Positions 17,716-63,152 of a DNA stretch of 64,000 nt are shown here, one piece after another (within the stretch, counting starts at the first letter, position 1; each line of letters begins with the position of its first letter). The translations under genes and the position numbers were made by a program. The notes beneath the pieces were generated by a model. That model had not been told where the DNA came from and ran no database searches. It saw nothing but the letters and a program-made list of their open reading frames with translations. Source of the DNA: an uncultured Acidobacteriota bacterium (GTDB lineage Bacteria; Acidobacteriota; Terriglobia; Terriglobales; Acidobacteriaceae); NCBI GenBank assembly GCA_963779945.1, contig CAWAAB010000001.1, positions 1,548,744 through 1,612,743 on the forward strand, read 5' to 3'.

Positions 17716-18621
17716 TCAGGCGATTTGGCCGGCAGCAGCGCGCAGAGGCACGGGCATAGGCCGAACGTCTTCCTCCAGCGTGGTTTCTTCCCACAGAGAG
17801 CGATCCCGCAACAGGCGGGAAACCAGGGCGGTATGCATGGCGTGGCCGGCGCGATCAGCGACCACGTTGCCCAGGATTTGCCGGCCCAGAAGCGCCAGAT
17901 CACCGATGAGGTCGAGCACCTTGTGACGAACGAATTCGTCGGCGAAGCGCAGCGGAGGGTTTTCCATTCCAGTGCGCGTCAGAACGATACAGTTATCGCG
18001 CGACGCGCCACGGATCAAACCCATGTCCCGCATGGCCTCTTCATCCTCCCGCGAACCGAAGGTGCGGGCGGGGGCAATTTCGCGCAGGTAGTTGCCGTCC
18101 TCTAAATCCACTCGGAAGCTTTCCTTGCCGATCAGCGGGTGCGGAAAGTTGATGGTATAGGAGACAGAATAGGTATCGGCGGGATAGACGGCGATGAACT
18201 TGTCGCCCTCGCGCAGTTCCAGCTCACGGCAGATGCGAAGATAGGTCCGGGCACGGCGTTGGGTGCGAATGCCGGCGTTCTTTATGAGCTCCACAAAGGG
18301 CCGGGCGCTGCCGTCAAGGATGGGAAGCTCCAGGTTGTCGAGTTCGACGATGGCGTTATCAATGCCGCTACCGATAAAGGCGGAGAGCAGATGCTCGGTG
18401 GTGGAAATCAGCACGCCCTTTTTCATCAGGCTGGTGGCGTAGCTGACGCGGGCCACGTTGCGGCCCGTGGCTTCGACTTCGAAACCGTCCAGGTCGGTGC
18501 GGCGGAAGACGATGCCGGAGCCTGCGGGGGCTGGAAGAATGCGCAAGTGGACCGGGGCACCGCTATGCAAACCCACACCCGCGCACTCCACGGCGGCACG
18601 AATTGTCTGCTCGTGTTTCAG
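17716..18621 (-). CDS. lpxC: UDP-3-O-acyl-N-acetylglucosamine deacetylase; start proposed at a CTG
   Basis: GVGLHSG...V.L...PA.AG.GI.FRRTDL signature. The conserved N-terminus extends upstream of the first GTG (18591). The frame opens at TAG 18637-18639, and CTG 18619-18621 is the only plausible initiator. Confidence 0.8.
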   Translation of the reverse strand: MKHEQTIRAAVECAGVGLHSGAPVHLRILPAPAGSGIVFRRTDLDGFEVEATGRNVARVSYATSLMKKGVLISTTEHLLSAFIGSGIDNAIVELDNLELPILDGSARPFVELIKNAGIRTQRRARTYLRICRELELREGDKFIAVYPADTYSVSYTINFPHPLIGKESFRVDLEDGNYLREIAPARTFGSREDEEAMRDMGLIRGASRDNCIVLTRTGMENPPLRFADEFVRHKVLDLIGDLALLGRQILGNVVADRAGHAMHTALVSRLLRDRSLWEETTLEEDVRPMPVPLRAAAGQIA

Positions 18622-18758
18622 AGTAAGCTTCGCTATCTATGGCGGTATGAGTAGATTAGCAGCGGAGGGGGAAATGTTGGCTGTGGCAAATTAGCCACAG
18701 TTCGTGGCTTTGCCTAACAACCCGCTTCTGCCCAATAACTTAGAAGTCTGCCCAATAA

Positions 18759-18950
18759 TCATTTTGACTCCCGTAGCGGTGTAGCGGATTTTTCCAACAA
18801 TGGCTGCCCGGCGGCACGTAGCTCCTCCAGGGTTTTCTTAGTTTTCCGCAATACCGTAATTCGTTGCTTCGCTCGATCAATTTGCTGACTGGCGTCTTGT
18901 ATTAAGTCGTCCCAAGTGGTTAACGGTTTACTCTTGACAGGCTGTTTCAC
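18759..18950 (-). CDS. Small hypothetical helical protein
   Basis: 63 aa, GTG start preceded by GGAGG 9 nt upstream. No family recognised. Confidence 0.45.
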   Translation of the reverse strand: MKQPVKSKPLTTWDDLIQDASQQIDRAKQRITVLRKTKKTLEELRAAGQPLLEKSATPLRESK

Positions 18951-18969: not shown

Positions 18970-19521
18970 GTGCCTACCTACAACGAGATACTAAGCACGC
19001 TGCGGCAAAACGTTGAACATATGGTCGCTGAACATGCTGCTATCGGGAAAAAGATTACCAGCCTCATGAAGGCCATTGAAGCCGTTCAAGCCCTTGCAGC
19101 AGAGGAAGAACTCGTCATTCAGCCTCCAACCATGCCCCCCGAGATGGAGGCAGGTTTTACCGATAGGGTGCGAAACATTCTCAAAGCGAATCCATTCCGC
19201 CCGCTCACTGCCGTAGAGGTTAGGGACGTGCTTCTGAAGGAAACGCCTAAAGACGATCCCAAGGTGACGCTGATCCATGCCCACAACACGCTGAAGCGGC
19301 TGAAATCGCAGGACGAGGTTGACGAGAGTGATGCACCCGAAGGCCGAAAGGCCTATCGCATCAAAAGCCCCTACTCGTCGCTGGCGTCGTTGGTACTTGA
19401 GAACAGCGGATTTGCAGGAGCAGTAGGGACATTGATGGCAACACCACCACCGAAAACCTCTTTGGAGGATGCCATTAGCACTTTGATTCACGAACCGAAA
19501 GAGAAGAATAAAGCGAAATGA
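18970..19521 (+). CDS. Hypothetical protein with a possible winged-helix region
   Basis: LTAVEVRDVL....IHAHNTLKRLKSQDEV....GRKAYRIK resembles a wHTH. The start is uncertain (GTG 18970 or ATG 19021). Confidence 0.45.
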   Translation: MPTYNEILSTLRQNVEHMVAEHAAIGKKITSLMKAIEAVQALAAEEELVIQPPTMPPEMEAGFTDRVRNILKANPFRPLTAVEVRDVLLKETPKDDPKVTLIHAHNTLKRLKSQDEVDESDAPEGRKAYRIKSPYSSLASLVLENSGFAGAVGTLMATPPPKTSLEDAISTLIHEPKEKNKAK

Positions 19522-19609
19522 CTTGCAGAATTCAATTCTGAAAGGAGATTTGCAGTGCAGGTGGAGAGTCAAACGTTTGAGCACGTCCTCCCCACCCGCA
19601 CCCTTTAAC

Positions 19610-19717
19610 GAAGAGGTGGCAGAGCGGTTGATTGCAACGGCCTGCAAAGCCGTAGATCGGGCCTCACCTTTGCCGGAAACGCCTGATCCGAGGGTTCGAA
19701 TCCCTCCCTCTTCGCCA
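19610..19717 (+). tRNA. Class II (Ser-type body) tRNA with anticodon GCA and a 36-nt variable region; CCA encoded
   Basis: Hand-folded. Stems: 7-bp acceptor GAAGAGG/CCTCTTC, D stem GCAG/TTGC, anticodon stem ACGGC/GCCGT with loop CTGCAAA, T arm GAGGG-TTCGAAT-CCCTC. Discriminator is G, followed by CCA. Confidence 0.6.
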
Positions 19718-19738
19718 AACTTATGAAAGAACGGTCTA

Positions 19739-19894
19739 TCACGCCTTGAGCTTGTATTTACGTGGCTTATTCCAGTACGGACTCTTGCACGCGGGGCAGA
19801 CCCCAGGTTCGCCGACTGTGCTCTTTCGCGGCTCCCACTCATGGAAGCAACGGTTACATTTATATCCCTTTCTTTTGAGCGTAACCAGTGCCAT
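19739..19894 (-). CDS. 51-aa CxxC...CxxC zinc-ribbon protein (below the ORF-track cutoff)
   Basis: Translated by hand: MALVTLKRKGYKCNRCFHEWEPRKSTVGEPGVCPACKSPYWNKPRKYKLKA. AGGTG lies just upstream of the ATG. Confidence 0.5.
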   Translation of the reverse strand: MALVTLKRKGYKCNRCFHEWEPRKSTVGEPGVCPACKSPYWNKPRKYKLKA

Positions 19895-19922
19895 GCACCT
19901 AAGATACCAGATAATAAGATAT

Positions 19923-19948
19923 TGTCAAGGTACATTTTCTCCTTGACA
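19923..19948. promoter_or_regulatory. Inverted repeat TGTCAAGG-N10-CCTTGACA in the divergent region between the zinc-ribbon gene and the transposase gene
   Basis: Read directly. It lies in an AT-rich 100-nt divergent intergenic region. Confidence 0.35.
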
Positions 19949-19995
19949 GATATATACCTATCTAGTAATATATTTCTCAGGTAAGCGGAGGCTTT

Positions 19996-21225
19996 ATGGA
20001 AGCCAGACAGCAACGCGGACTTGAGATTGCGGCCACTACGAAGATTCGGCGGTATGGCGACCGCTGGCAAGTCCCGTCCCAAACGGGGAACGGGTTTTAC
20101 ATGGTGGACACGGAGCACGAAAAATGTTCTTGTCCCGATTGGGAAACTCGCCGACAGAACTGCAAACACATTTTTGCCGCTATTTACGTCATGAGACGCG
20201 AATACGATAAGCACGGGCAGATGCTCATAACCGAGACGGTTGCTCTGGCTAGCGTGGAGCAACGCCCAACGTATCCGCAAGTCTGGCAAGCCTACAATGC
20301 TGCACAGATCAACGAGAAGGATAGATTCCAGTCGCTCCTGTTCGACCTTTGCCGTGGAATCCAGCAGCCTCCCATTCAACGCACAGGCCGCCCCTCGTTG
20401 CCATTGGCCGATGCGATCTTTAGCGTGGCTTTCAAGGTCTATTCCACTGTTAGCGCTCGGCGCTTTATGAGTGATCTTCGGGCCGCACAAATAAACGGTT
20501 TCATCTCCAAGACTCCTCACTACAATTCCATTTTCAATTACCTTGAGAATCCAGAGATGACCCCTTTCCTTCGGACGCTCATTACTCAGAGCAGTCTGCC
20601 CCTGCAATCGGTAGAAACTGACTTTGCCGTGGATTCTTCCGGCTTCATGACTACCCGTTTCGTGCGCTGGTTTGATGTGAAGTATGGCAAGGAGCACTCC
20701 GAACGCGAATGGGTAAAATGTCACTTGATGTGCGGAGTCAAAACAAACATCGTCACGGCTGTCGAGATTGCCGATAAGCATGCCAGCGATGCTAGGCAAC
20801 TTCCGGCTCTCGTCGAAGCTACCGCAAAGAACTTCCGTGTCTCCGAAGTCTCCGCCGACAAAGCCTATGGCGGGAACCCTGCTACCGATGCAGTTGTCCA
20901 AGCTGGCGGTACGCCCTTCATTTCTTTCCGTGGCAACGCAACTGGCGGAGTCGGCGGCACATTCGGCCAGATGTTTCACTACTTCATGTTCAAGCGCGAG
21001 GAGTTCTTGCAGCACTACCACAAGCGCAGCAACGTAGAATCTACGTTCTCGATGATGAAGCGCAAGTTCGGAGACTCGCTTCGCAGCAAGACCGACGTAG
21101 CGATGGTCAACGAGACGCTTTGTAAGATTCTCTGTCATAATCTGGTCGTTCTAATCCACGAAATGTACGAACTCGGGATTGACCCCGTGTTTTGGAGCAA
21201 TCCTTCAACTAGCTATCAACAGTGA
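19996..21225 (+). CDS. IS4/IS5-superfamily DDE transposase with an N-terminal SWIM zinc finger
   Basis: CSCPDWETRRQNCKHIFA (SWIM CxC..CxH). DDE candidates are AVDSSG, SADKAY and NVESTF. YHKRSNVESTFSMMK matches the Y(2)R(3)E(6)K signature. GGAGG lies 7 nt upstream. Confidence 0.85.
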   Translation: MEARQQRGLEIAATTKIRRYGDRWQVPSQTGNGFYMVDTEHEKCSCPDWETRRQNCKHIFAAIYVMRREYDKHGQMLITETVALASVEQRPTYPQVWQAYNAAQINEKDRFQSLLFDLCRGIQQPPIQRTGRPSLPLADAIFSVAFKVYSTVSARRFMSDLRAAQINGFISKTPHYNSIFNYLENPEMTPFLRTLITQSSLPLQSVETDFAVDSSGFMTTRFVRWFDVKYGKEHSEREWVKCHLMCGVKTNIVTAVEIADKHASDARQLPALVEATAKNFRVSEVSADKAYGGNPATDAVVQAGGTPFISFRGNATGGVGGTFGQMFHYFMFKREEFLQHYHKRSNVESTFSMMKRKFGDSLRSKTDVAMVNETLCKILCHNLVVLIHEMYELGIDPVFWSNPSTSYQQ

Positions 21226-21902: not shown

Positions 21903-21921
21903 AGTCTGCCCAAAAACTCCA

Positions 21922-22037
21922 CGTCCTGCCCATAAACTACTCACAGGACGCCCCTTTGTGGGCAAAGCCACAGTTCGTGGCTTTGCCCACAAACCGGGGC
22001 GGAAAAGCTGCCCGATGAGTAGTTTATGGGCAGGACG
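21922..22037. repeat. Nested palindrome: outer 22-bp perfect arms and inner 17-bp perfect arms around a 5-nt loop
   Basis: The outer arms are CGTCCTGCCCATAAACTACTCA (21922-21943) and its reverse complement at 22016-22037. The inner arms are TTTGTGGGCAAAGCCAC (21955-21971) and its reverse complement at 21977-21993. Confidence 0.85.
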
Positions 22038-22146
22038 CGGGGGTTTTGCGCAGCCTAGGCAATGTACGTTTGGCGTGTATTAGGAGTACGATCTCCGCGT
22101 CTGATGCTCTGGATATTGTTCGGAGATCGCTGCGGAGGTGTACGCG

Positions 22147-23034: not shown

Positions 23035-23083
23035 GCCGCCCAAAACACAGGGTCGATGCCGAGTTCGTTCATTTCGTGGTTAG

Positions 23084-23887
23084 TTACTTCCTAGGCGCGG
23101 GCTGGTTGGCGTAATACGTCACGCTGACGTTGAACAGGGAATCATTCAGGCCGGTGTTGTAGCGGATGGAGTTCAGGAAGCGCTGGCTGGCCATGTCCCC
23201 ATTGTAAAAACGGGTGACACTGAAGGGCGTCATCACGCCTTCGATCGGCTTGTAGTTGTCGTAGACTTCTTCTTCGATGTTACGTTCTTTGTCGGTGGGG
23301 TCGCGCCAGGAAAAGCTCTTCTTCACAGGGAGATGCGAAGTGGTGTCAAGGTAAAGATCGACGGACTGGTTTTTGGCGTTCACGAGCGTGACCTGCTGCG
23401 TGTCCTTCTCGGCGGCCACGGCGGGCCCGTCGTAAAACAAGGCCATGCCGGGTTCATGCAGCCACTTGCGCAGAACCCAATCCAGCGAATAGTTGCGGCG
23501 GCGGATAAAATCGGCGACGGTCTTGGGATCGTCGGAGCGGACGCCCTTGTAGGTGATCTCGAACCCTTCGTCTCCGCGATAAACGTAGGCCACGTCACGC
23601 TTCTTGGTGAGCTCAATCCGCTCTTTGTCGGGAAAGCGATAGAAACGCCAGAAAAGGCCGCCGGCGCCGCTGGGTTCGCCGTGATGAAAGCTGTAGGAAC
23701 GGCCTTGCTGGGTCATGTCCTCGATGTTGAGATAAGCGTTGCCCCCGAGAGCTTCGATGGCTTGGTCGAGCAGAGCACGGGCTTTGGCCGCGTTTTGCTG
23801 GTCAATGGGGATGGCGGGAGCGGCTGGAGGACTAGTCTGGGCCACCGCCATGGCGGCGAAAAGCAGGATGGAAAGAAAACGCTTCAT
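23084..23887 (-). CDS. Secreted hypothetical protein (possibly LolA-like fold)
   Basis: Signal peptide MKRFLSILLFAAMAVAQ. The fold assignment is only an impression. Confidence 0.6.
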   Translation of the reverse strand: MKRFLSILLFAAMAVAQTSPPAAPAIPIDQQNAAKARALLDQAIEALGGNAYLNIEDMTQQGRSYSFHHGEPSGAGGLFWRFYRFPDKERIELTKKRDVAYVYRGDEGFEITYKGVRSDDPKTVADFIRRRNYSLDWVLRKWLHEPGMALFYDGPAVAAEKDTQQVTLVNAKNQSVDLYLDTTSHLPVKKSFSWRDPTDKERNIEEEVYDNYKPIEGVMTPFSVTRFYNGDMASQRFLNSIRYNTGLNDSLFNVSVTYYANQPAPRK

Positions 23888-58516: not shown

Positions 58517-59725
58517 ATGTCAAATCTCATCGCCAAAAAAGGTGTGATCGGAATTCTGACCGGGGGTGGGGATGTACCTGGCTTGAACCCCGCCATCCGT
58601 GCCGTGACCATCCGGGCGGTTCGAGAAGGCTACCAAGTGATCGGCCTGCGTCGTGGATGGGGGGGGCTGGTCGACATGGTACGCGAAAAGGATTATGACA
58701 ACAGCGACAACTTCCAAATACTGTCGGAGGAAATCGTTAACCGCGCCGGCCGCACCGGCGGAACCTTCCTGCACAGTTCCCGCACCAACCCCAGTAAGGT
58801 GAAGAAGTCAGCGGTTCCGGCGCATCTGAAGGAAACGTATACGGCTGAGAAGAACGACCTGACTCCAGAAGTGCTCAAGAATCTCGATTGGCTGGGCATC
58901 GACTTCTTGATTCCCATTGGGGGTGACGACACTCTCAGCTACGGAGTGCGCCTGGTCCAGGAAAATGTGCGCGTAGTCGCCATTCCCAAGACTATGGACA
59001 ACGATGTTCCGGGAACCGATTACTGCATTGGGTTCAGCACCTGTATTACCCGCACCATCCAGATGACCAATAGCCTGCGGACCTCTGCGGGCTCGCACGA
59101 ACGCTTTCTGGTGATCGAGGTATTCGGACGCTATGCCGGGTTCACCGCCATGCTGCCAACCATGGCGGGGGCGGCAAACCGCTGCGTCATCCCGGAGCAT
59201 AAATTCGACATTGAGCAACTCACGGAGTTGCTGGTGGCCGATCGCCGCAAGAATCCCAGCCGGTATTCCGTCGTGTTGGTTTCAGAAGGAGCGATGTTCG
59301 CCGGCGGAGAAATGGTGTTCGAAAGTCACACCACGGATGCTTTCGGCCATAAGAAACTGGGCGGAATCGGCGATCTCGTCTCTGACAAACTGCAGGAGCT
59401 TTCGCCCAAGTACAATCGCGGCACGACCGTAGACGTCCTCAACCAGAAGCTGGGCTATCTCGTCCGCTGCGGTGATCCGGACGCGATTGACTCCGTAGTA
59501 CCTATGGCTTATGGCAATCTTGCTCTCGACTTGATCCTCCGCAAGGTCCACGGCAGGCTGGTGGTGCTGAAGAATGGCCGTTACGACAACATGGACATTG
59601 AGGTCGTGACCGCTACAAAAAAAGTGGTGAATGTGAAGGAGCATTACAACACCGAACGCCTGCGGCCGTACTACAAGAGTTTCGAGATGAAACCGCTGTT
59701 TTTCATGACCAGCGAGATGGAATAG
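58517..59725 (+). CDS. 6-phosphofructokinase, with residues suggesting PPi dependence
   Basis: GILTGGGDVPGLN, IGGDDTL (Asp at the position equivalent to E. coli Gly104) and PKTMDND (Lys at the Gly124 position). Confidence 0.85.
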   Translation: MSNLIAKKGVIGILTGGGDVPGLNPAIRAVTIRAVREGYQVIGLRRGWGGLVDMVREKDYDNSDNFQILSEEIVNRAGRTGGTFLHSSRTNPSKVKKSAVPAHLKETYTAEKNDLTPEVLKNLDWLGIDFLIPIGGDDTLSYGVRLVQENVRVVAIPKTMDNDVPGTDYCIGFSTCITRTIQMTNSLRTSAGSHERFLVIEVFGRYAGFTAMLPTMAGAANRCVIPEHKFDIEQLTELLVADRRKNPSRYSVVLVSEGAMFAGGEMVFESHTTDAFGHKKLGGIGDLVSDKLQELSPKYNRGTTVDVLNQKLGYLVRCGDPDAIDSVVPMAYGNLALDLILRKVHGRLVVLKNGRYDNMDIEVVTATKKVVNVKEHYNTERLRPYYKSFEMKPLFFMTSEME

Positions 59726-59805: not shown

Positions 59806-59850
59806 GGAGAGGTGGCAGAGCGGCCGAATGCGGCGGTTTGCTAAACCACC
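59806..59850 (+). pseudogene. 5' fragment of tRNA-Ser(GCU): acceptor 5' strand, D arm and anticodon arm only
   Basis: GGAGAGG-TG-GCAGAGCGGCCGAATGC-G-GCGGT-TTGCTAA-ACCAC. No T arm (GGTTCGAATCC) or CCTCTCC acceptor 3' strand was found downstream in the window. Confidence 0.6.
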
Positions 59851-62453: not shown

Positions 62454-63152
62454 CTAGACACGAGGTTTCAGCCGACCAACCCAGCGCATCGGTTGGCCGC
62501 GGCGATCAATGAGGGGATCTACGTTGAAGAGTTTGCGAAGCGAATCCCTCCAGCTCAACCGCTTCGGACGAGGGCGCTTCTCTTGACCTAATAGCGCAAA
62601 CACCGCCGCCATCGTCTTGCTTCGGGAGCGCGGCGATAACAGTCCAAAATGCCGAATGGCATGGTGGTAATGTTCTGGCACATGTTCGGCTAGCAATGCG
62701 ACAAACTCCGCTTTGGCATAGCGGCTTACTACGGTGCGCTTCTCCCGCAGGTCCTTTGTCCAAAATTCAACTTCCCGATCCGTTATCGCCAGGAAGCGAC
62801 GCTGAGCGATCGGCAGTCGGCGAACGTACCGGCCAGCGTATCGCAGGAACTGAGCCTTTGACTGGAAGGGTGCGATGTCTATGTTCCACCATCGCTCGTA
62901 TTGAGCGGTCAGGTTGGCCCTCAGTTCTTTCGGAGAGCAGTCTGATTTGAGCACTTTCGCCTTCAGGGCTTCGCGAAGGTGGGTGATGACCGCATATCGC
63001 CATAGGTGCATCAAGGTTCGCTTGTCACGCTTGTCAAGGTGCAGTCGGGAAATCCATTGGCTATCCGATTCCCGTAAACCACTAGCAGACATCAGCACGT
63101 GGAGATGAGCATTGAAATTCAGATGCCTGCCGAATGTATGTGGAACGACCAT
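62454..63152 (-). mobile_element. IS91-family (Y2 HUH rolling-circle) transposase gene, 5'-truncated remnant
   Basis: VVPHTFGRHLNFNAHLHVLMSASGL and FLRYAGRYVRRLPIAQRR (YxxRY) match the C-terminal two thirds of IS91 transposases. The zinc-binding N-terminus is missing, with a stop 13 codons upstream. Confidence 0.7.

Follow-up and report, generated by a model that had tools for sequence, protein, structure and literature searches.

Several natural tRNAs are known whose aminoacylation identity disagrees with their anticodon, among them tRNA-ProA/ProX of Streptomyces and tRNA-Ser(CAG) of the CUG-clade yeasts, and we know of few such mismatched tRNAs in bacteria. The same disagreement is found in the nev-tRNAs of nematodes, class II tRNAs with foreign anticodons (PMC3333845). 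Closest to the present case are the allo-tRNAs that Mukai et al. (2017, NAR; PMC5389517) described from Acidobacteria, together with 'irregular tRNA' polycistrons. The available text of that article names UAU, GCG and GUC, and not GCA, as the predominant allo-tRNA anticodons, notes a transposon-related protein and toxin-antitoxin genes near allo-tRNAs, and reports that S. bohemicum allo-tRNAs with Leu anticodons put Ser at Leu codons in Escherichia coli and kill the cells. Allo-tRNAs also function with the tip of the variable arm swapped for hairpin aptamers, and a bulge in the stem blocks seryl-tRNA synthetase (SerRS) (PMC7590224). Here, we describe a tRNA gene with anticodon GCA at positions 19610-19717 of a 64-kb stretch of DNA (the window) from a metagenome-assembled genome (MAG) of Terriglobales. 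This tRNA belongs with the Ser-tRNAs of mismatched anticodon already known from Acidobacteria, as a variant with 7/5 geometry. In common with the allo-tRNAs, as described in the available text of Mukai et al., it has an acidobacterial host, a long variable arm, G73, a GGAGAG-type acceptor stem and a non-Ser anticodon. It differs from them by its 7/5 acceptor/T geometry and normal tRNA-Ser D arm, as opposed to 8/4 or 9/3, a long D stem and a tetraloop, and by its 36-nt variable region. The gene and its landmarks are as follows:

19610-19717, plus strand: tRNA gene, 7/5 class II, tRNA-Ser architecture, anticodon GCA (Rfam, fold, covarying subfamily, near-identical design in loci L106, L085 and L094)
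19644-19646, plus strand: anticodon GCA
19654-19689, plus strand: variable region, 36 nt
19714, plus strand: G73
19715-19717, plus strand: encoded CCA

The sequence, coordinates and hand fold given for this interval by the initial annotation were correct. Rfam model RF00005 (tRNA; gathering score, 29) matched 19610-19714 on the plus strand with 58.0 bits (E = 6e-10 for the 64-kb window; model positions 1-71), a full-length match that is not sub-threshold and the sole Rfam match in the window. Other RNA families matched the locus at E <= 10 only as a plastid trnS-antisense artefact and noise. The check with tRNA finders proposed in the initial annotation thus turned out positive with the Rfam model and negative with ARAGORN, which called zero tRNAs in the window. 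Relatives whose variable regions measure 16-24 nt are labelled 'tRNA-Cys(gca)' by ARAGORN, and none of the six tested with regions of 32-37 nt is found, nor is L070, a 9/3 relative with a short arm; the failure of the program on the window tRNA is probably due to the long variable arm and a length limit. The minimum free energy (MFE) structure computed with RNAfold (-46.3 kcal/mol, z = -2.9, with none of 200 shuffles equally stable) recovered the acceptor stem (7 bp), the T stem (5 bp) and the earlier proposed 8-bp stem of the variable arm, with two further base pairs inside the latter; the D and anticodon arms were mispaired. The tRNA folds better as the plus strand, on which G.U pairs occur (summed -524 kcal/mol, versus -481 kcal/mol for the minus strand). 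U8, G18G19, U33, A37, the T loop and the encoded CCA are all present, the acceptor and T stems consist of 7 + 5 Watson-Crick pairs, the D stem is 3-4 bp with a 9-nt, tRNA-Ser-like loop, and the variable-arm stem is bulge-free.

The 7/5 geometry, the long hairpin of the variable arm, flanked on either side by a single unpaired nucleotide, G73, a GGAGAG-like acceptor stem, a D arm with G10-C25, C11-G24 and G18G19, and a D loop of the tRNA-Ser type are all those of a canonical tRNA-Ser. The window tRNA departs from it in lacking a serine anticodon (NGA or GCU) and carrying GCA instead, in a variable region about twice the usual size, in A2-U71 for G2-C71, and in its transposase cassette. With canonical tRNA-Cys and selC* tRNA-Cys it shares GCA in a CUGCAAA loop. 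Those two, in contrast, have U73 and are substrates of cysteinyl-tRNA synthetase (CysRS); selC* is 8/4, and canonical tRNA-Cys has a class I body with a variable loop of 4-5 nt, to be compared with 36 nt here. The possibility raised earlier that homologs might reveal an odd tRNA-Cys with U73 found no instance, G73 being present in the window tRNA, in all 12 members of its subfamily (see below) and in the 9/3 relatives read. The 8/4 or 9/3 acceptor/T composition of allo-tRNAs is absent (an 8/4 alternative fold does not exist because U8 cannot pair with C65), as is their tRNA-Sec-like long D stem with a tetraloop; the combination of long variable arm, G73 and non-Ser anticodon in an acidobacterial host is present. 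Neither the 8/5 geometry (13-bp acceptor branch) nor the UCA anticodon of tRNA-Sec is found, and clan competition in Rfam retained tRNA over tRNA-Sec. From these identity elements, and from the allo-tRNA experiments in the available text of Mukai et al. (PMC5389517), we infer that the window tRNA would be aminoacylated by SerRS.

A 5′ fragment of a tRNA-Ser(GCU), about 45 nt long through the anticodon stem and missing its 3′ half, lies at 59806-59850, directly after a phosphofructokinase gene (pfk, 58517-59725); an IS91-type Y2_Tnp fragment is found at 62454-63152. The fragment looks like a host tRNA-Ser gene cut short by insertion and, being too short, falls below Rfam detection. Its near-identity to the 5′ half of the window tRNA had been overstated: 17 of the first 18 nt match (through the 5′ part of the D arm), and identity over 43-44 nt is only ~70-77%.

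To find relatives, we scanned 185,579 species genomes with a pattern in which a Ser-type D arm and a standard T loop enclose a GCA anticodon loop and a long variable region. Of the 31 loci returned, the five acidobacterial ones, from Acidobacteriaceae or Sulfotelmatobacter, all share the design, with the same D arm, GCA, G73 and encoded CCA and with variable regions of 16, 18, 24, 32 and 37 nt. Archaeal matches were intron-containing tRNAs, and those from other bacterial phyla were class-II-shaped tRNA(GCA) with U73 (A73 in one), which are a separate phenomenon. Scanning of viral contigs gave a single unrelated U73 tRNA with the tRNA pattern (on a 333-kb contig) and chance matches only with the junction pattern. 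Sampling of metagenomes and from the transposase side added further members, including three with the 36-nt variable-arm design of the window (L085, L094 and L106) and three Ser-type tRNAs with anticodon UAG, which reads the Leu codon CUA (L069, L089 and L090).

Twelve distinct 7/5 sequences from acidobacterial genomes and soil metagenomes were next used in a covariation test of the cloverleaf and the 8-bp variable-arm stem. Paired cells amounted to 93%, and changes on both sides were seen in 16 of 29 pairs, among them five of the seven acceptor pairs and all eight pairs of the variable stem. These values were reached by none of 500 shuffles, and sliding the partners by 1-3 columns lowered pairing to 45-55%. 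Among the four 36-nt arms compared, a C-G pair is replaced by U-A, and the G.U wobble shifts position. G73 and CCA are invariant in all 12 members, and the tRNA-Ser D arm is kept. The compensatory changes, together with the shuffle and slide controls, rule out a drifting pseudogene, and agree with the initial annotation, which had judged from the intact landmarks that the gene was not decayed and had looked to homologs for such changes. Thus, the cloverleaf of the window tRNA, as judged from sequence comparison, is maintained by selection.

The anticodon loop is likewise conserved. CUGCAAA occurs on three scaffolds (the 7/5 Ser-like type, a second 7/5 class II type and the 9/3 allo-tRNAs) whose anticodon stems differ. 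When metagenomes were scanned blind to the anticodon, using a pattern made of the T loop, CCA and the downstream insertion sequence (IS) motif only, 18 unique cassette tRNAs carried 13 GCA, three UAG, one GUC and one GUU anticodon; in the transposase-side sample (the window and six looked-up homologues), GCA was present in four of seven occupied slots. Residue 37 is a purine in all members except one: every member with A36 or U36 has A37, and three of the five with G36 (L089, L090 and L095) have G37. In tRNAs that decode, position 37 is modified in these contexts (MiaA, TrmD). Taken together, the constant loop, the predominance of GCA and the residue-37 contexts are the strongest indication we have that the ribosome uses this anticodon.

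The tRNA gene is one part of a cassette whose order is a winged-helix open reading frame (ORF-X), a leader hairpin, one or two tRNAs, and an IS5-like DDE/SWIM transposase gene with divergent promoters. In the window, its parts are:

18970-19521, plus strand: ORF-X, 183 amino acids (aa), N-terminal coiled coil and winged helix (start from alignment and NCBI gene call)
19555-19601: leader hairpin of 14 bp, arms 19555-19568 and 19588-19601, palindrome CAAACGTTTG in the loop
19718-19995, plus strand: spacer and conserved 5′ region of the IS-like unit (alignments; nhmmer on loci with and without a tRNA)
~19776-19812: imperfect left inverted-repeat-like stretch
19901-19928, minus strand: P-out, outward sigma-70-like promoter TTGACA-16-TATCTT with TG, pointing antisense across the tRNA towards the hairpin
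19943-19971, plus strand: P-tnp, transposase promoter TTGACA-17-TAATAT
19996-21225, plus strand: IS5-like transposase gene, DDE_Tnp_1 with an N-terminal SWIM zinc finger (Pfam)
23040-23079, minus strand: solo remnant of the IS right end, a 40-nt copy in inverted orientation

Alignments show unbroken similarity between genomes from ~19549 (TTTGCAGTGCAGG) to ~21196 (...GTGTTTTGG); in tRNA-less copies the left boundary lies at ~19733, and an invariant motif, ATTCCAGTA, occupies 19769-19777. Fast-evolving ORF-X homologues precede the hairpin in most cassette loci, and ORF-X stops 20-40 nt before it in nearly all of them. ORF-X has 802 representatives in a library of 1.8 billion proteins and zero matches in Pfam, NCBIfam, PADLOC and PHROGs; its AlphaFold2 model (predicted local distance difference test score, 71) gave weak, Fur/MarR/PadR-like Foldseek matches. 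Both divergent promoters lie within 110 nt before the transposase start codon. Among the 18 unique cassettes, equivalents of P-out (TTGACA-16/17-TATAnn) match 10-11 of the 12 consensus positions in 15, and equivalents of P-tnp match at least 10 of 12 in 17, with the exact -10 hexamer in 16. The transposase scores 66.5 bits with Pfam DDE_Tnp_1 and 105.6 with the NCBIfam IS5 model, under the cut-off of 140, and over 7,900 homologues reach E <= 1e-10.

What occupies the tRNA slot differs from genome to genome:

9/3 allo-tRNA with anticodon GCA: L070, L075, L076, L077, L078, L083, L100, L110
9/3 allo-tRNA with anticodon GUC: L079
His-like (G-1/C73) tRNA with anticodons GUU, CUG and UGU: L072, L095, L108
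class-I-like tRNA: L100 (first gene), L114
slot without tRNA: L040, L032

The slot is thus hypervariable, its contents being swappable between the same hairpin and the same transposase, and the tRNA-less cassettes retain intact transposase genes. Some slot tRNAs are irregular, with odd T loops or U37. L087 and L090 are ~92% identical from the tRNA T arm into the IS-like unit and have the acceptor and T arms in common, with different D, anticodon and variable arms, an exchange of arms that suggests recombination inside the tRNA. L072 and L090 are also 91-92% identical from the T arm into the IS-like unit, and their tRNA bodies differ. That 9/3 GCA allo-tRNAs and G-1/C73 His-like tRNAs use the exact slot, between hairpin and transposase, filled by the window tRNA bears out the link to acidobacterial allo-tRNAs drawn in the initial annotation; its suggestion of a different class was too strong, the window tRNA being a 7/5 scaffold variant within the same cassette family. 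ORF-X, the hairpin and the IS5-like cassette, lpxC synteny, an antisense promoter, a 7/5 Ser-type member and GCA predominance are absent from the available text of Mukai et al. 2017 (PMC5389517), and a targeted literature search returned no further description of the cassette. Nor are the nev-tRNAs, tRNA-ProA/ProX and yeast tRNA-Ser(CAG), which belong to other organisms and identities, known to come with a transposase-linked cassette with a variable slot.

The leader hairpin sits nine nucleotides upstream of the tRNA. Across 25 loci, 12 of its 14 pairs show changes on both sides (none of 500 shuffles did as well). Its non-Watson-Crick cells comprise 37 A.C and seven G.U, and its summed MFE is -723 kcal/mol for the minus strand and -613 kcal/mol for the plus strand; the A.C excess and the lower minus-strand energy mean that the helix is better as minus-strand RNA, although the neighbouring tRNA is a plus-strand gene. 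The loop palindrome AAACGTTT is nearly invariant among homologous leader hairpins. The conserved P-out and the strand asymmetry of the hairpin together suggest an antisense transcript of ~340 nt, which would run from near 19893 across the tRNA to the hairpin, although no U-tract follows there. Two other roles for the hairpin were rejected, that of a plus-strand terminator for want of a U-tract after it on either strand, and that of a sigma-70 or sigma-54 promoter for want of correctly spaced hexamers.

The chromosomal surroundings of the cassette are also conserved, as seen from its two neighbours in the window:

17716-18591, minus strand: lpxC (Pfam LpxC), chromosomal neighbour of the cassette
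23084-23887, minus strand: 267-aa secreted-looking protein, the other conserved flank

lpxC adjoins every close transposase homologue looked up (window, L104, L106, L100-102, L095-98, L108, L110 and L114), and is also adjacent in L008, where the element is decayed; lpxC-adjacent cassettes are thus found at eight sampled Terriglobales loci (window, L008, L095, L100, L106, L108, L110 and L114). A homologue of the 267-aa protein flanks the island wherever the far side was fetched (L095, L100, L106 and L114). The cassette always lies on the 5′ side of lpxC, in either orientation, so that one of its two promoters always faces lpxC; L095, L108, L110 and L008 form one orientation group, and the window, L100, L106 and L114 the other. 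Identities to the window of LpxC and of the transposase fall together (93.5/81.8, 85.8/77.8, 82.0/77.2, 81.0/75.6 and 78.5/77.9%). In the genome nearest to the window among those sampled (93.5% LpxC identity across 124 compared residues), the tRNA has the same 36-nt design, and its differences are compensated. Each sampled transposase homologue has a single context, and the 64-kb window holds one copy. From these comparisons, the cassette is apparently a largely sedentary element, present as a single sampled copy that diverges with the chromosome in Terriglobales. Four Acidobacteriaceae loci have no lpxC within the 8 kb fetched, and their flanks are shared neither with each other nor with the window, indicating that the cassette moved, or that its flanks changed, at deeper divergence.

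The initial annotation had placed the tRNA on a transposase island. The DDE_Tnp_1/SWIM gene and the low G+C content (dipping to 0.52-0.54) agree with this description; the island is a conserved cassette by lpxC and no typical hopping IS. Like an IS5-family insertion sequence with passenger genes (tIS), the cassette has a DDE_Tnp_1 domain, an outward promoter, end remnants and, in L008, a miniature inverted-repeat transposable element (MITE)-like deletion derivative. It differs from one in its single context per genome sampled, lpxC synteny, co-divergence of transposase and host, and tRNA passenger, and no clear ends were found: the left (~19776-19812) and right (21160-21196) ends show imperfect subterminal similarity only, with no consistent target-site duplication. 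A typical IS carrying the tRNA between terminal inverted repeats was accordingly set aside, neither convincing repeats nor target-site duplications having been found. The break that follows 100% identity between L074 and L084 was likewise discarded as the boundary of a mobile unit; it is a recombination or assembly junction, since both loci have divergent ORF-X homologues upstream.

The reading that we favour, and to which we give about an even chance, is that the window tRNA, a relative of the allo-tRNAs with 7/5 geometry, is charged by SerRS and acts as a missense tRNA (Cys to Ser), possibly under antisense restraint. The plus-strand tRNA would be transcribed, probably by read-through from ORF-X, and trimmed by RNase P, its CCA being already encoded. 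SerRS, which does not read the anticodon, would then serylate it by virtue of the long variable arm, G73, the GGAGAG-type acceptor stem and C11-G24, and the ribosome would use the resulting Ser-tRNA at UGC and UGU codons, leading to low-level Cys-to-Ser substitution. P-out would drive transcription antisense across the tRNA as far as the leader hairpin, and this antisense RNA would be the most likely brake on a probably toxic product. As to purpose, the cassette may be selfish and act in addiction or as a toxin, or the tRNA may provide regulated mistranslation. A number of observations weigh against this reading. The window copy has A2-U71, and E. coli SerRS prefers G2-C71; we know of no precedent for SerRS charging a tRNA with a 36-nt variable arm; two members (L076 and L092) have the loop CCGCAAA, with C33 for U33, which is unusual for a decoding tRNA. 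No sigma-70-like plus-strand promoter was found at the locus directly upstream of the tRNA, and the antisense transcript is predicted from promoter consensus and strand-asymmetric pairing alone. Finally, according to the available text of Mukai et al., six allo-tRNA(UAU) species were inactive in translation as amber-suppressor variants, and some irregular tRNAs are charged yet unused (PMC5389517).

Observations of the latter kind would fit a tRNA-like element that does not decode at all, an explanation we consider possible but rather unlikely, in which the element acts as a processing (RNase P/Z) or insulating signal between ORF-X and the transposase, as the partner or target of the P-out antisense RNA, or as a ligand for ORF-X or the transposase, and would regulate expression of the transposase gene or lpxC instead of translation. 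The fixed position of the tRNA between ORF-X and the transposase in every cassette, the conserved antisense promoter with hairpin pairing on the minus strand, the slot's acceptance of very different tRNA types (odd T loops and U37 included), the two C33 members and the many allo-tRNA(UAU) species that are probably unused in translation (PMC5389517, available text) all point that way. A pure processing signal, however, needs no invariant seven-nucleotide anticodon loop, purine 37, G73, encoded CCA or Ser-type acceptor and D arm, and tRNA-less cassettes with intact transposase exist (L040 and L032). The rapid swapping of slot contents, as between the ~92% identical flanks of L087 and L090, might instead reflect an arms race in which the tRNA soaks up a tRNA-Cys nuclease, or replaces a tRNA cleaved by anticodon nucleases or other tRNA-targeting toxins. 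Variable neighbouring cargo (an M78 peptidase pair in L095) and the toxin-antitoxin genes near allo-tRNAs (PMC5389517, available text) are compatible with such a decoy or replacement, which we nevertheless regard as improbable: searches of PADLOC, PHROGs and Pfam recognised no nuclease, toxin or known defence protein in the window cassette, and a replacement tRNA-Cys should have U73 for CysRS, not G73.

G73 also argues against the tRNA inserting Cys or selenocysteine (Sec) at UGY codons, whether after charging by an unusual CysRS or through serylation followed by a SelA-like or SepCysS-like conversion. The conservation of GCA, the benign effect that a Cys-to-Sec substitution would have, and the use of the same slot by allo-tRNA(GCA), in a group of 9/3 allo-tRNAs that bear elements for the Sec-synthesis machinery (PMC7590224), lend this idea some appeal. 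Yet CysRS depends on U73 (PMC5389517, available text, references 38 and 39 therein), the window tRNA, being 7/5 with the D arm of an ordinary tRNA-Ser, has neither the long D stem nor the 8/5 geometry of tRNA-Sec, and Pfam/NCBIfam annotation found no selA, selD, cysS or SepCysS-like gene in the cassette, making it very unlikely. Least credible of all is a captured tRNA-Ser pseudogene drifting after a chance anticodon mutation. The match of its 5′ end, including the 5′ strand of the D stem, to the tRNA-Ser(GCU) fragment at 59806 and the mobile-looking island would suit such an origin; the twelve diverged copies, which are not recent identical duplicates, keep their stems by compensatory changes and preserve G73, CCA and the anticodon loop, and even the closest sampled genome, with the same 36-nt design, differs by compensated changes.

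Deliberate mistranslation has its clearest candidates in natural tRNAs with an anticodon that does not match their identity. The SerRS-charged missense tRNA that we favour would mean that an ordinary 7/5 tRNA-Ser body, and not just the exotic 8/4 and 9/3 ones, has been redirected to cysteine codons and selectively kept. Such genes are hidden from annotation, which either misses them for their long arm or labels them tRNA-Cys. The irregular tRNAs of Acidobacteria have one definable cassette in common, which also holds an antisense promoter, a structured leader and the gene of a protein partner, parts that provide handles on the purpose of the allo-tRNAs, a question open since 2017, and tRNAs that tolerate a long variable arm are of interest as chassis for genetic-code engineering. 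A more speculative proposal, which we put forward tentatively and would not expect to be right in full, is that Terriglobales have a conserved 'code-editing' cassette resident in the chromosome. The missense tRNA in its slot, exchangeable and mostly Ser-tRNA(GCA), would be governed jointly by an antisense RNA, a winged-helix regulator and the IS5-like transposase, by then domesticated, and either the cell or the selfish cassette could turn on Cys-to-Ser substitution across the proteome. Were this true, the substitution would disable thiol, Fe-S and Zn sites, which could make the cassette a toxin, an addiction device or a stress switch; its position and invertibility upstream of the essential lpxC could belong to the control, and one of the cassette proteins may recognise the 36-nt variable arm as a natural aptamer tag. 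A 'private code' in which Cys codons of cassette-linked transposase genes would fall where Ser is needed was rejected because the conserved Cys columns are Cys in tRNA-less copies too; these columns are the SWIM CxC...C and four others, and C alternates with S/T in just two scattered columns.

Several further observations concern the cassette and its surroundings. Solo copies of the IS right end, 40-58 nt long overall (window included), are also seen at 2336-2457 and 3053-3110 of L008, whose MITE-like derivative, an internal deletion joining left end to right end, lies beside the tRNA. At other loci the left end of the IS-like unit lies 30-60 nt downstream of ordinary-looking genes (L071, L068, L073, L081/L091 and L086/L088). 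The preceding gene has a tmRNA-like 3′ end in L071 (...CCACCA) and probably L068 (...GGTACCA), and is a tRNA or tRNA-like in the others. This hints that the unit prefers insertion after tRNA-type genes, at a count close to chance given that the search pattern required a tRNA. Cargo beside the cassette is variable, the M78 peptidase pair of L095 being one example. In the window, a 226-aa ORF and the 267-aa flank protein gave zero matches in PADLOC, PHROGs, Pfam and NCBIfam, and a 298-aa ORF gave a single weak PADLOC match (E = 1e-3) and otherwise none in these databases. A 715-aa open frame on the minus strand (18991-21138), antisense to the transposase, tRNA and ORF-X, can almost certainly be dismissed as spurious, since slots of different length at different loci would put it out of frame; in L032, minus-strand ORFs were annotated by gene callers across the corresponding region.

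A palindromic repeat element at 21903-22056 has 41-nt inverted arms enclosing a perfect 17-bp hairpin, and repeated TCTGCCCAAWAAC motifs. With a partial copy at 18693-18760, between lpxC and ORF-X, the stretch that holds ORF-X, tRNA, transposase and 226-aa ORF has this element on both sides. An NCBI contig of the same locus stops at the equivalent of ~21885, less than 20 nt from the start of the element.

The class-II-shaped tRNA(GCA) of other phyla combine cysteine identity (U73) with a long-variable-arm body, and we know of no description of class II tRNA-Cys. They were found in L006, L009, L010, L011, L014, L016, L017, L018, L021, L025 and L031 and on the 333-kb viral contig L067, the hosts being Phycisphaerae, Rhodocyclales, Akkermansiaceae, Hydrogenophaga, Armatimonadota, an uncultured gammaproteobacterium and the viral contig. 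Most of the loci scanned for neighbours sit within tRNA arrays, of dozens of genes in L009 and L011. The A73 form, at 5543-5628 of L015 in a Binataceae MAG, lies ~170 nt from a cobalamin riboswitch.

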